DNA of 64,000 bases, taken from assembly GCA_965248835.1 (NCBI GenBank), contig CBDFLJ010000002.1, positions 384,001 through 448,000 on the forward strand, written 5' to 3'. A program made the translations under genes and the position numbers. Below, piece after piece: positions 9,823 to 15,320 of this stretch. Every line of letters starts with the position of its first letter. Position 1 is the stretch's first letter. Source of the stretch: Alphaproteobacteria bacterium. GTDB lineage: Bacteria > Pseudomonadota > Alphaproteobacteria > MPNO01. Below the pieces are notes generated by a model, which had not been told where the DNA came from, searched no databases, and saw only the letters and a list, made by a program, of their open reading frames with translations.

Positions 9823-10308
9823 ATGAGAACCGTCCTGTCTCTGAGCCTCAACGGGAAGGGCCGCGACGATGTCGTCGCGGACAACATGCTGCTGGTCGAC
9901 TACCTGCGCGAGGTCGCCGGCGCAACGGGCACCAAGATCGGCTGTGACGGCGGCGAGTGCGGCGCCTGCACGGTGCTGATCGACGACCGGCCGCGCCATT
10001 CGTGCCTGACCCTTGCCGGTGCCTGCCAGGGCGCCCGCGTCGAGACGATCGAATCCCTCGAGCGAAGCGGTCGGCTGTCGGCGATCCAACGCGGCTTTCA
10101 CGAAAAGCTCGGTGCCCAGTGCGGGTTCTGCACCCCCGGCATGATCATGGCCGCCGAAGGCCTGTTGCGGGCGAACCCCGACCCGGACGAGGCGGCGATT
10201 CGTTCCGGCATGGCGGCCAACATCTGCCGGTGCACCGGCTACATCAAGATCATCGAGGCGATACGCGCGGCCGCGGTCGAAATCGCGGCCGGGGAGGCGG
10301 CGGCATGA
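9823..10308 (+). CDS. hcrC: 4-hydroxybenzoyl-CoA reductase gamma subunit (2x[2Fe-2S])
   Basis: [36 protein letters not shown]; coupled to hcrA. Confidence 0.9.
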
Positions 10309-12641
10309 GCCAGGCGATCGGCCCCATCCAGACGATCGGCGTGCCGACGCCGCTGATCGACGGCCCGGAAAAGGTCTCCGGCAAGGCGCTTTATACCGCC
10401 GATTTCATCAACCAGGCCGAACTGGTCGGGCGGATCCTGCGCAGCCCGGTGGCGCATGCAAGGATCCTCAGCGTCGATACCAGCGCGGCCGAGGCGCTGC
10501 CCGGCGTCCACGCGGTGGTCACCGGTGCGGACTGCGCGGACACCTATGGCGTGCTTCCGATCGCGATGAACGAGTACGCGATCGCCAAGGACCGGGTGCG
10601 CTACCGCGGCGAGGCGGTGGCGGCGGTCGCGGCCGAGGATATTGTTACCGCCCAGCGTGCGCTCGATCTGATCGAAATCGTCTATGACGAGCTGCCGGCC
10701 TATTTCACCGCCGAGGCGGCGCGCGCGGCGGATGCGATCCAACTCCACGACGAGCGGCCGGGCAATATCGAGCGCGAGGTTGACTTCGAGCTCGGCGATG
10801 TCGCGGCCGGGTTTGCCGCCGCCGATCTGGTGCGCGAGCGGACCTATCAGCTTGGCGAGGTCTGCCAGGTCCAGTCCGAGCCGCACGCCGCTCAGGCCGA
10901 ATACGACGCCACGCGCGAGCGCATCACCGTCCGCGCGTCCACCCAAGTGCCCTATTACGTCCACCTGATGCTCGCCCGCACGCTGGGCATGGAGCAGTCC
11001 GACATAAGGGTGATCAAGCCCCATGTCGGCGGCGGGTTCGGATGCCGGACCGAGGCGCTGCATGTCGAGCTGGTCGCCGCCCTGCTCGCGCGCAAGGCGC
11101 GCGGCACCGTCCGCCTGGTCCTGAGCCGCGAGGAGACTTTCATCACCCATCGCGGCCGCCAGGAGACTGCGGTCAAGCTCAAGCTCGGGATGAAGAAGGA
11201 CGGCACGATTACCGCGGTCGAGTGCGAATCGGTCCACCGCGCCGGCGGCTATTCGGGCTACGGGATCGTCACCATCCTCTACAACGGCTCGATGCTGTTT
11301 GCGATCTACGACCTGGAGAACGTCAAGTACAAGGGATTCCGGGTCTTGACCAACATGCCGCCGCCCGGCGCCTTCCGGGGCCACGGCACGGTCAACATCC
11401 GGTTCGCCTTCGAGAGCCTGCTCGACGACATGGCCGAGACGCTGGGGCTTGACCCGTTCACGGTCAGACGGGCGAACCTGCTGAGCGCGCCGACGTTTAC
11501 GGCCAACGAACTGATGGTCAATTCCTACGGCCTGCCCGAGTGTCTGGATATCGTCGAAAAGGTATCGGGCTGGAAGGAGCGGCGCGGCAAGCTCGGTCCC
11601 AACCGCGGCCTCGGCATGGCGTGCTCGCACTACATCTCCGGTGCGTCCAAGCCCAAGCACTGGACCGGTGAGCCGCACGCGACGATCCAGCTCAAGCTCG
11701 ACTGGGATTCCTCGATCACACTGTTGACCGGCGCGGCCGAGATCGGCCAGGGCTCGTCCACCGTCCTTGCCCAGTGCGTGGCCGAGGTGCTGGGGATCGA
11801 TATCAGCCGGATCAACGTCGTCGCCTCCGACAGCGCGCTCACCCCGAAGGACAACGGCTCCTATTCCTCGCGGGTCACCTATATGGTCGGCAACGCCGCG
11901 ATCAATGCGGCCGAGAACCTGAAGGCCGTGCTGACCGACGCGGCAGCGAAAAAACTCGACGTCCGTCCCGAGGACGTCGAATGCCTGGGCGATGTCTACC
12001 GTGCCGGTTCTCAGGACGAGGGCCTGACCTGGAAGGAGGTCGTGATGGCGGCCCTGGAAGGCACCGGCACGATCACCGTCAAGGGCACCTTCGATACCAT
12101 TCCCGAGTCCTGGGGCGGGCGGAAATACCGCGGTGCCGCGATCGGCGGGACGATGGCCTTCGCCTACTCCGCGCTGGTCTGCGAAGTCGCGGTCGATCCG
12201 GAAACCTGCGAGATCTCGGTCGAGAAGGTCTGGGTTGCCCATGACTGCGGCAAGGCGCTCAACCCGCTCTCGGTCGAGGGCCAGATCGAAGGCTCGGTCT
12301 GGATGGGCATGGGCCAGGCGCTGTCCGAAGAGACCCGCTACCACGACGGGCTCGGGATCACCGGCAACATGCTCGACTACCGCGTGCCGACGATCGTCGA
12401 ATCGCCGCCGATCGAGACCCACATCGTCGAAAGCGCCGACCCGCACGGCCCGTTCGGCGCCAAGGAGGCCGGCGAGACCTCGCTTGCCAACTTCCTGCCG
12501 GCGCTGACCAGTGCGGTCGCCGATGCGCTGGGCGTGCGCGCCAGCGAGCTGCCGCTGACCCCGGACCGGTTGATGGAGCTGCTGGAGAAGAGGGAAACGG
12601 ACACGCGGGTCGCGGCGCGCCGGATCGGGGAGGCCGGGTGA
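10305..12641 (+). CDS. hcrA: 4-hydroxybenzoyl-CoA reductase alpha subunit (Mo-MCD)
   Basis: HcrA-diagnostic strings GVLPIAx[56 protein letters not shown] overlap with hcrC. Confidence 0.93.
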
Positions 12642-13618
12642 TGGAGTACATGCCGGCCTTCAAGTTGGAGCGGCCCGATACGGTCGCAGACGCGGTCCGG
12701 CTGCGCGCAGCCGATGAGACCGGGCGCTATCTCGCCGGCGGGACCGACATGGTGGTCAACGTCCGGCGCGGGATCGAGGCGCCGACGACATTGGTCGACC
12801 TGACCAACGTTGCCGAGCTCAAGGAGATCCGCGCGGACGCGGACGGGCTGCATATCGGCGCCGCCGTCCCGCTGAGCGCGGTTGCCGCCCATCCCGATGT
12901 CGCGCGCGACTACGCCGCCGTTGCCGAGGCCGCCGCCGCGGTGGCCGGCCCCACCCATCAGAACTACGGCACCGTCGGCGGGAACCTGTGCCTGGACACC
13001 CGCTGCCTCTACTACAACCAGAGCGAGTGGTGGCGCCGGTCCAACGATTATTGCCTCAAGCACCGGGGCGAGGTGTGCCATGTCGCGCCCGGCGGCAAGC
13101 GTTGCTTCGCGACGTTCTCCGGCGACCTCGCGCCGGCCGCACTGGTCCACGGGGCCGAGGTGACGCTTGCCGGCCCCGACGGCGACCGGCTTGTGCCGCT
13201 GCAGGAGATCTACAGGAACGACGGGATGGATCACCTCGCGCTGGGGCGCTACGAGCTGCTGACCACGCTGCATCTGCCCAAGGCCGGGGCGGGCCTGCCT
13301 TCGGGCTACCGCAAGGCACGGGTCAGGGGCTCGATCGATTTCCCGCTGGCCGGTGCCGCCGTCGGACTCAGGATGGACAACGGCGCGCCGGCCGAACTCA
13401 GGATCGCGGTGACCGCGGTCAACCCCATTCCCCATATGATCAAGGGCACCGACGCCTTCCTCGGCAAGCCGCTCGACGGGGCCGCGCTCGATGCGCTGCG
13501 CGATGCGGTGCGCAGCCAGGCCAAGCCGATGCGGACCACCACGGTCGCGCCGTGGTATCGTCGCCGCGTGGTGGGTGCGCTGGCCCGGCAGCTCGTGGAG
13601 CGTCTCCAGGCCGCCTGA
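12638..13618 (+). CDS. hcrB: 4-hydroxybenzoyl-CoA reductase beta subunit (FAD plus extra [4Fe-4S])
   Basis: AGGTD; Cys-rich insertion [45 protein letters not shown]. Confidence 0.93.
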
Positions 13619-14491: not shown

Positions 14492-14501
14492 AGGATCAGC
14501 G

Positions 14502-15320
14502 ATGCCGACGCGAGACTACGAGACCCTGCTTCTCGACATCGTCGACGGGGTCGGGCGGATCACCTTCAACCTGCCGCAATTCGGCAACGCGCTCACCCGG
14601 ATCGGCGTCGAGGAATTGCTCGCCGCGCTGAATGCCTGCGAGTCCGATGAAACCGTCGGCGCGGTCATGCTGACCGGCGCCGGCCGGAGCTTCTGCGCCG
14701 GCTTCAACCTCAAGGAGATCCCGCCGGTCGATGACGGGATCGCGCCGATCGCCGACCACTTCCGCGATCTGGCGATGTGGTGGCATCTGGTGCTGCACAA
14801 GATCGTCCATATCCCCAAGCCGGTGATGTCGGCGGTCAACGGGGCTGCCGCCGGCTCCGGGCTCGGCATGGCGCTGTGCTCGGATCTCGTGGTGTGCTCG
14901 CAGGACGCGCGGTTCCTGTGCGCCTGGCACACCATCGGGCTGGCCAACGATGCGACCACCAGCTATTCGCTTGCCAAGATCGTCGGCTTCCGCCGCGCCC
15001 AGGAGATGATGATCACCAACCGCACGCTGGGAGCGGCCGAGGCGGTCGAATGGGGCATCGCCAACCGCGTCTACCCGGCCGCGACCTTCGCCGAGACCGC
15101 CGCCGCCATCGCCCGCGACCTCGCCGCCGCGCCCACCCACCTCCAGGCGATGGCCAAGGAAAGCTTTCACCTCGGCTGGCGGCGGTCGATCGAGGAGGCG
15201 ACGGAATACGAGATCAAGAATGTCATGACCTCGGTCCGCGACCCCTATTTCCACGCCGCGCTCAAGCGCTTCCTCGAAGACGGCGGCAAGTCCTCCAAGG
15301 TCCAGGTCGAATTGCCCTGA
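14502..15320 (+). CDS. fcbB: 4-chlorobenzoyl-CoA dehalogenase (crotonase superfamily)
   Basis: Co-linear with Pseudomonas CBS3 FcbB as recalled: FCAGFxLxEIP, DHFR..A.WWH, CAWHTIG..ND..TSYSLA.IVG.RRA, LAAAPTHLQ.MAKE.FH.GW, TE.EI.NV, QVELP; F64, W89, H90, W137 and D145 equivalents present. Confidence 0.9.
   Translation: MPTRDYETLLLDIVDGVGRITFNLPQFGNALTRIGVEELLAALNACESDETVGAVMLTGAGRSFCAGFNLKEIPPVDDGIAPIADHFRDLAMWWHLVLHKIVHIPKPVMSAVNGAAAGSGLGMALCSDLVVCSQDARFLCAWHTIGLANDATTSYSLAKIVGFRRAQEMMITNRTLGAAEAVEWGIANRVYPAATFAETAAAIARDLAAAPTHLQAMAKESFHLGWRRSIEEATEYEIKNVMTSVRDPYFHAALKRFLEDGGKSSKVQVELP

Follow-up and report, generated by a model that had tools for sequence, protein, structure and literature searches.

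We describe a gene block, hcrC-hcrA-hcrB-hydrolase-fcbB, in which the genes for a predicted 4-hydroxybenzoyl-coenzyme A (CoA) reductase of the HcrCAB type are joined to the gene for a predicted 4-halobenzoyl-CoA dehalogenase of the FcbB type. The block lies in a stretch of 64,000 nucleotides (nt), referred to here as the window, which comprises positions 384,001-448,000 (forward strand) of contig CBDFLJ010000002.1 in assembly GCA_965248835.1, from an organism listed as Alphaproteobacteria bacterium (MPNO01); coordinates are those of the window unless a contig is named. The genome (G000) amounts to 4.89 Mb in two contigs (C1 and C2), with a completeness of 100 and a contamination of 9.5. Judging from sequence, we give a probability of about one half to the proposal that this MarR-flanked operon feeds halobenzoate into the benzoyl-CoA 2,3-epoxidase (Box) hybrid pathway of an aerobic host. 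In the same explanation, and with the same confidence, the host is an aerobic, Defluviicoccus-related uncultured alphaproteobacterium of soil or sludge type. More tentatively, we suggest that an order of aerobic alphaproteobacteria may funnel para-hydroxylated benzoyl-CoA esters via HcrCAB into the Box pathway, and that one family may have docked FcbB onto this system, which would give a 4-halobenzoate route with neither an oxygenase nor a benzoyl-CoA reductase up to benzoyl-CoA; for the order as a whole the absence of the reductase refers to the class I enzyme, class II having been looked at in G000 only.

The five genes follow one another in the same orientation on the + strand (9823-15320), and form a real, conserved operon-like block. 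The first of them, hcrC (9823-10308, +), encodes the gamma subunit of the 4-hydroxybenzoyl-CoA reductase-type enzyme, starts with ATG and is preceded by the ribosome-binding site GGGAGGGGAG. It is overlapped by 4 nt (ATGA) by hcrA (10305-12641, +), for the molybdopterin-containing alpha subunit, which in turn is overlapped by 4 nt (GTGA) by hcrB (12638-13618, +), for a flavin adenine dinucleotide (FAD)-containing beta subunit with an extra cysteine-rich loop. A 36-nt gap separates hcrB from the alpha/beta hydrolase gene (13655-14491, +; ribosome-binding site GGGGAGGG), and a further gap of 10 nt leads to the fcbB-like crotonase gene (14502-15320, +; ribosome-binding site AAGGA), the start of which is about 880 nt past the end of hcrB. 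A consensus pattern scan revealed no terminator-like site on the + strand within 9823-15320, and the sole GC-rich hairpin near the end of the operon (15366-15381) is situated between fcbB and the next gene, which is convergently oriented. A pattern scan likewise gave no sigma-70-like promoter, and the intergenic region between hcrC and the divergent marR gene contains no inverted repeat. The stretch is contained in eight public sequencing runs from two studies, with no RNA run among those listed.

Families were assigned using NCBIfam equivalog cut-offs, Pfam domains and the best solved chains in the PDB. On this basis, the equivalog level is reached by HcrA (1144.9 bits against TIGR03194, cut-off 994.55) and by HcrB (421.3 bits against TIGR03195, cut-off 404.55), and HcrC lies slightly below it (241.6 bits against TIGR03193, cut-off 257.8). 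The best solved chain is the matching subunit of 1rm6 in each case, namely 1rm6_A for HcrA (995.3 bits, E 1.9e-298), 1rm6_B for HcrB (286.1 bits) and 1rm6_C for HcrC (222 bits, with the runner-up at 159). HcrC contains the Pfam domains Fer2_2 and Fer2, that is, two [2Fe-2S] domains. The FAD_binding_5 match of HcrB covers 209 residues against a profile of 170 positions, and all five cysteines of the inserted loop are aligned with 1rm6_B. In the enzyme of Thauera, cysteines of this beta-subunit loop hold a [4Fe-4S] cluster; the loop is particular to the reductase and is tied to its reversed electron flow. By family membership, the HcrCAB proteins of the window are therefore predicted to be a genuine 4-hydroxybenzoyl-CoA reductase-type enzyme. 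Of 79 matches in the genome, the hcrA copy at 10305-12641 alone exceeds the TIGR03194 cut-off. These 79 matches (about 70 separate genes) to a xanthine-dehydrogenase/CO-dehydrogenase-type large-subunit model represent an expansion of paralogues within a 4.9-Mb genome, and first-look candidate counts for the same molybdenum (Mo) large-subunit model are comparably high in relatives.

The product of the last gene of the block matches 4-chlorobenzoyl-CoA dehalogenase (1nzy) over residues 6-272 with 331.6 bits and an E-value of 3.7e-98, and the next-best solved family reaches 122 bits (E 2.7e-34). WWH, CAWHTIG and the N-D of the nucleophile are all present in the alignment with 1nzy, in which the residues F64, F82, W89, H90, G113, G115, W137, D145 and E232 (1nzy numbering) are kept. 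All of these are invariant in 50 of 50 aligned sequences, with the exception of F64, which is found in 45. D145 and H90 correspond to the nucleophile and the base of the characterised dehalogenase. Position 114, a glycine in 1nzy, serves through its backbone NH, paired with the NH of Phe64. It is serine here and varies between S, A, V and G among relatives, including those encoded beside a ligase, and we therefore do not read the serine as a loss. At CoA-contacting positions there are departures from the CBS3 sequence (R24 replaced by G/A, Y65 by N and R67 by K). Taken together, the crotonase is predicted to be a motif-complete 4-halobenzoyl-CoA dehalogenase of the FcbB type. A preliminary description of the stretch had already named the three motifs and given the coordinates, overlaps and gaps of the five genes; the alignment bears out the former, and the latter agree exactly with the open reading frame (ORF) listing and our reading of the sequence. 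According to the passages available from PMC6100074, the FcbB mechanism proceeds by attack of Asp145, formation of an aryl-enzyme intermediate and its hydrolysis.

The gene between hcrB and fcbB encodes a protein with weak Pfam matches, the AlphaFold model of which shows an alpha/beta fold (predicted local distance difference test score, pLDDT, 93.1). The Foldseek matches ranked best, an enol-lactonase and aryl esterases, have a template modelling (TM) score of about 0.65 with some 20% identity and are generic, and a search for homologous proteins returned generic names only. An alignment of 30 relatives shows no variation at S97, S98, D221 and H224, and from the model the protein is predicted to be an alpha/beta-fold serine hydrolase. 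Two of these invariant residues, Asp221 and His224, are spaced by only three positions (P-G-x-D-x-x-H), and inspection by eye located no histidine in the C-terminal region at the usual place of the catalytic histidine of alpha/beta hydrolases; judging from sequence, the catalytic residues may be arranged in an unusual way. Of 10 loci with both hcrB and fcbB, 8 contain the hydrolase gene, and L017 and L085 lack it.

The rest of the genome indicates the fate of the benzoyl-CoA that HcrCAB would form. In G000, both boxB (848.8 bits, cut-off 499.1) and boxC (925.8 bits, cut-off 712.3) are present, and they are clustered with a benzoate-CoA ligase gene at C2:149.8-154.6 kb (L078), all three above their cut-offs. 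The domain of the class I benzoyl-CoA reductase B/C subunits, PF06050, has no match in G000, and the best narG match reaches 51.1 bits against a cut-off of 1084. The single AOR-family gene of G000 was considered as a BamB candidate and rejected, as it is much nearer to aldehyde oxidoreductases (191.8 bits to 1aor and 62.8 bits to BamB, 4z3w). BoxB/BoxC, predicted to be oxygen-dependent, is the sole benzoyl-CoA route detected in G000. The window itself is rich in oxygenases, as it encodes a Rieske dioxygenase with its ferredoxin and reductase, a gentisate-type dioxygenase and a meta-cleavage lower pathway. The preliminary description had proposed hydrolytic dehalogenation followed by reductive dehydroxylation in an anaerobic setting, and had named a benzoyl-CoA pathway elsewhere in the genome as a point to check. 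Such a pathway is indeed encoded, as boxB/boxC with the benzoate-CoA ligase, and no bcr/bzd/bam-type genes were found in the genome. The sequence of reactions retains its chemical logic, and is supported by motif-complete enzymes, a tight gene block and a linkage that occurs in four genera, but the anaerobic setting has to be given up in view of the missing class I or BamB-like reductase and narG, the Box route as the only one found, and the oxygenase-rich window.

With regard to activation of the substrate, the window contains no AMP-binding ligase gene, and the closest ligase match is located about 58 kb from fcbB. On the other contig, housekeeping genes surround a gene for an orthologue of 4-chlorobenzoate-CoA ligase (C1:159844-161412); this orthologue shares 59-67% identity with the ligases encoded 3' of fcbB in other lineages, and matches the solved 4-chlorobenzoate-CoA ligase with an E-value of 1e-121. 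The aryl-CoA ligase model has 59 matches in G000 altogether. Two further ligases above the benzoate-CoA ligase family cut-off are encoded at C2:1151434-1155698 and C1:751521-755917, both divergently beside Mo large-subunit genes that reach only about 357 bits on the HcrA model, and these two pairs may be paralogous modules for other aromatic acids.

We propose a route of four steps. The unlinked ligase orthologue on C1 would activate 4-halobenzoate to its CoA ester. FcbB, in which the required residues are in place, would then exchange the halogen for a hydroxyl group by Asp-mediated aromatic substitution and His-assisted hydrolysis of the aryl-enzyme. The 4-hydroxybenzoyl-CoA so formed would be reduced to benzoyl-CoA by HcrCAB, in keeping with its family membership, using low-potential electrons, and benzoyl-CoA would enter the oxygen-dependent BoxB/BoxC epoxide pathway. 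Both steps encoded by the operon would be free of oxygen, and the pathway as a whole would be an aerobic hybrid, not an anaerobic one. As to the source of electrons, no ferredoxin or other electron-donor gene, and no ligase gene, is found among the window genes neighbouring the operon, and conserved ligase or ferredoxin neighbours of hcrCAB were likewise not found in eight other genomes of the order, where the ORF filter based on GC content at third codon positions (GC3) is poor at the lower-GC loci L090 and L094. At the far end of the window (60280-64000, -), a gene similar to that of the indolepyruvate:ferredoxin oxidoreductase alpha subunit lies beside a gene resembling those for ADP-forming acyl-CoA synthetases, a pair more usually met in archaea and anaerobes, which might supply reduced ferredoxin.

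The linkage recurs in related genomes in the order hcrCAB, then fcbB. Among 58 related loci gathered with fcbB as the query, hcrCAB adjoins the fcbB match in 10 (L013-L020, L061, L062), and the remaining 48 contain no HcrA match above 31% identity. A search of genomes for fcbB within 5 kb of hcrA, as suggested in the preliminary description, yielded 11 genomes (G000, G010, G012, G013, G016, G017, G019, G020, G021, G022, G024) from four genera (g1, g3, g5, g6) of one family, when both cut-off-passing and near-passing hcrA genes were counted; in G010 the hydrolase is missing and fcbB follows hcrCAB without it. G008 and G015 were left out of this verdict, as the two genes are on separate short contigs. 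In G006, G007 and G011, fcbB and hcrA are unlinked, and in the first two of these a ligase gene follows fcbB. A second fcbB-bearing family possesses both genes, never close to each other (more than 500 kb apart in G059 and G062). Outside the hcr-linked clade, an AMP-binding ligase gene directly follows fcbB in 24 of 49 loci (FcbB of at least 50% identity). A quick tree, used solely to place the ligase-linked and the hcr-linked fcbB genes of the family within one clade, groups the two together and apart from 37 other rows. A protein of 450-700 residues, the sole Pfam match of which is a 4Fe-4S dicluster domain, is encoded shortly downstream of fcbB in eight loci, directly after it in L023, L024 and L035 and after the ligase gene in the Burkholderiales-type loci L040, L041, L043, L045 and L047.

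Across the 78 genomes surveyed in the order, HcrA exceeds its NCBIfam cut-off in 55, BoxB in 69 and PobA in 27; FcbB, counted at E <= 1e-60, is found in 28, and PF06050 in none. HcrCAB thus appears to be part of the core gene set of the order. As part of the explanation that we favour, and at its level of confidence, fcbB, usually with the hydrolase gene, would be an accessory module that was docked onto hcrCAB in one family.

Upstream of hcrC, a divergent set of genes on the - strand leads away from the block, encoding in order a MarR-family regulator, a hotdog thioesterase, an EamA-family transporter, an amidohydrolase_2 protein and a short-chain dehydrogenase/reductase (SDR). The regulator gene (9244-9702, -; Pfam MarR_2 and MarR, with the NCBIfam aromatic-acid MarR relatives below their cut-offs) is kept beside hcrC in L013-L020, L061 and L062, and its product likely controls both divergent operons. 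The thioesterase gene (8821-9237, -; Pfam 4HBT_2) encodes an FcbC-like protein, the best solved match of which is the 4-hydroxybenzoyl-CoA thioesterase of Pseudomonas CBS3 (1bvq/1lo7, E 1.3e-12), with an aspartate at the Asp17 position; the gene was found in 5 of 10 hcr-linked loci under a 50% coverage filter, and only as a fragment in L062. The preliminary description had recognised the hcr and fcbB genes but had overlooked this divergently encoded thioesterase and the ligase orthologue on the other contig. The membrane transporter gene (7916-8821, -) has two Pfam EamA stretches, and is kept in 8 of 10 hcr-linked loci. Membership of the amidohydrolase_2 gene (6479-7633, -; PF04909) in the system is uncertain; its family includes non-oxidative hydroxybenzoate decarboxylases, and its solved relatives include PtmU3, gamma-resorcylate decarboxylase and ACMSD (E 1e-23 to 1e-15). 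On the other side of the block, convergent to fcbB, lies a close homologue of 4,5-dihydroxyphthalate decarboxylase (15413-16447, -; 9jp7, E 1.1e-96, 327.1 bits) for which Pfam gives only a weak NMT1 or phosphonate-binding domain. A homologue adjoins fcbB in L011, L014, L017 and L085, and the gene is probably a separate unit.

Several results weigh against a coupled route into the Box pathway. The Thauera-type reductase is an enzyme of anoxic metabolism that needs reduced ferredoxin, for which no donor gene was identified here. No boxA over the cut-off was found anywhere in G000 (best match 36.9 bits against 459.2). Of the 19 genomes of the family, 17 encode the ligase orthologue, among them four that have no fcbB, and it was not found in G010, where hcr and fcbB are linked, so the ligase is not specific to the pathway. 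An FcbA-like ligase occurs in 25 of 28 fcbB-positive and in 16 of 50 fcbB-negative genomes of the order, a difference confounded by kinship; as it is also kept in the four fcbB-less genomes of the family, we rejected it as a specific marker of fcbB. The FcbC-like thioesterase with its catalytic aspartate, encoded on the other strand only 600 bp away, could by its sequence draw off 4-hydroxybenzoyl-CoA through hydrolysis to the free acid. In G009, the sister species (L086/L062, same genus), hcrCAB and the MarR and EamA genes are intact, and the hydrolase gene (residues 1-43 followed by a poorly matching stretch), fcbB (188-272) and the thioesterase gene (95-139) persist only as fragments; by this joint decay, fcbB is associated with the thioesterase no less closely than with hcr. 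Finally, a PobA match over or near the cut-off is found in 10 of 12 genomes of genus g6, home of most of the linked operons. The classical route is therefore possible in g6, and a lack of PobA was rejected as the general reason for the linkage.

In a rival arrangement, the fcb and hcr modules would stand side by side, uncoupled. FcbA-, FcbB- and FcbC-like enzymes would run the classical route to free 4-hydroxybenzoate, which would be exported by EamA or degraded elsewhere, and hcrCAB would independently serve 4-hydroxybenzoate catabolism, with nothing shared except a regulator that senses a common intermediate. The FcbC-like thioesterase and the 4-chlorobenzoate-CoA ligase orthologue make this fcbABC-type route a standing rival, as do the joint decay in G009, the PobA matches of g6 and the frequent pairing, outside the clade, of fcbB with a ligase gene where hcr is not nearby. 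We nevertheless regard it as rather unlikely. The fcbB gene shares its strand with hcr and starts 10 nt past the hydrolase gene, and the thioesterase gene belongs to the opposite operon; the thioesterase was not detected in L014, L018, L019 and L020, all of which have hcrCAB-hydrolase-fcbB, nor in L085. Hydrolysis of a CoA ester that can be used next door would also waste the ATP spent on its activation. In G000, moreover, pobA was not found (highest score 32.6 bits, cut-off 538.7), so free 4-hydroxybenzoate would have no standard aerobic outlet there. UbiD-family decarboxylases, encoded at 56223-57725 of the window and at C2:159466-160899 (L078 18466-19899), are a possible alternative outlet; they score best, but in every case below cut-off, on the models for phenylphosphate carboxylase and for hydroxyarylic acid decarboxylases of the VdcC type.

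The identity of the substrates may also be questioned at either end of the operon. It is improbable, in our judgement, that the FcbB-like enzyme has as its main substrate a naturally occurring 4-substituted benzoyl-CoA, which may be non-chlorinated, or one with another halogen, with 4-chlorobenzoate as a side substrate, the hydrolase releasing the aromatic acid from an ester precursor and HcrCAB receiving 4-hydroxybenzoyl-CoA from FcbB as before. The conserved serine hydrolase between hcrB and fcbB, the altered CoA contacts and the many uncultured genomes that possess close fcbB relatives (58 loci, and 418 proteins at E <= 1e-40), some of them labelled deep-ocean, would fit such a role, but the catalytic residues of the dehalogenase are all invariant, the orthology of the partner ligase with the solved 4-chlorobenzoate ligase is clear, and no result points to another substrate. 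Still less probable is that the Hcr-like enzyme has a different aromatic CoA ester as its substrate or works in reverse, as a hydroxylase, in which case the adjacency would mean something else. The very large expansion of the HcrA-model family in G000 (79 matches), the presence of Hcr in an order with no class I benzoyl-CoA reductase and the score of HcrC just under the equivalog cut-off are in its favour; against this, only the present copy exceeds the HcrA cut-off, the Thauera enzyme is by far the best solved match of all three subunits, and the beta subunit keeps the [4Fe-4S] loop that is specific to the reductase.

The proposed route into the Box pathway combines features of several known systems. 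The fcbABC or fcbBAT1T2T3C clusters for 4-chlorobenzoate are known from Pseudomonas sp. CBS3, Arthrobacter and Comamonas, and their enzymes were compared through the PDB entries 1nzy, 1t5d/3cw8 and 1bvq/1lo7. The present system resembles them in its FcbB-type dehalogenase, in the CBS3-type thioesterase nearby and in the ligase orthologue in the genome. Ligase, dehalogenase and thioesterase genes are not clustered at this locus, however, as the ligase gene is on the other contig and the thioesterase gene in the opposite operon and often absent among the loci; in addition, fcbB is co-oriented with hcrCAB, and G000 lacks the PobA that would handle the classical product. With HcrCAB/HbaBCD of Thauera aromatica and Rhodopseudomonas palustris (1rm6, 1sb3) the block shares the gamma-alpha-beta gene order, equivalog-level alpha and beta subunits and the Fe-S loop, but its host has the Box pathway with no detectable benzoyl-CoA reductase or narG, and the operon includes a dehalogenase and a hydrolase gene, with no adjacent ligase or ferredoxin gene. 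Class I benzoyl-CoA reductases are known to dehalogenate halobenzoyl-CoA, as with the 3-chloro compound in Thauera chlorobenzoica and the 4-fluoro compound in Thauera aromatica. The route proposed here would likewise lead from halobenzoyl-CoA to benzoyl-CoA without oxygen, as that reaction leads to benzoyl-CoA or dienoyl-CoA, but in the absence of such a reductase the halide would be removed by hydrolytic substitution and the hydroxyl group by a separate Mo enzyme. The genome agrees with known Box systems in its clustered boxB, boxC and benzoate-CoA ligase genes, all over their cut-offs, and differs from them in having no boxA over the cut-off.

All parts of the system are known enzymes, so the new element is the combination and its aerobic setting. 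The pairing of FcbB with HcrCAB seems to be undescribed: as in the preliminary description, which knew of no operon with this linkage, our literature searches turned up no account of it, although these covered mainly the open literature and its absence from print is thus unproven. The passages available from PMC6100074 treat the dehalogenation of 4-chlorobenzoyl-CoA and not a pairing with Hcr. Nor was an account of Hcr feeding 4-hydroxy- or 4-halobenzoate into the Box pathway found among the papers listed in these searches.

The removal of a para halogen is known to follow two strategies, namely aerobic hydrolytic dehalogenation, which passes through 4-hydroxybenzoate and protocatechuate, and reductive dehalogenation by benzoyl-CoA reductase. 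If the coupling of FcbB to HcrCAB is real, hydrolysis followed by reductive dehydroxylation would be a third way that joins the two. Defluviicoccus lives in wastewater sludge, where swings in oxygen and a supply of 4-chlorobenzoate from the breakdown of polychlorinated biphenyls (PCBs) or pesticides are plausible. HcrCAB would then be not only a marker of anaerobic degradation of aromatic compounds, but also a peripheral enzyme of the aerobic Box pathway, and this would affect how metagenomes are read, since the presence of hcr is often read there as a sign of anaerobic metabolism.

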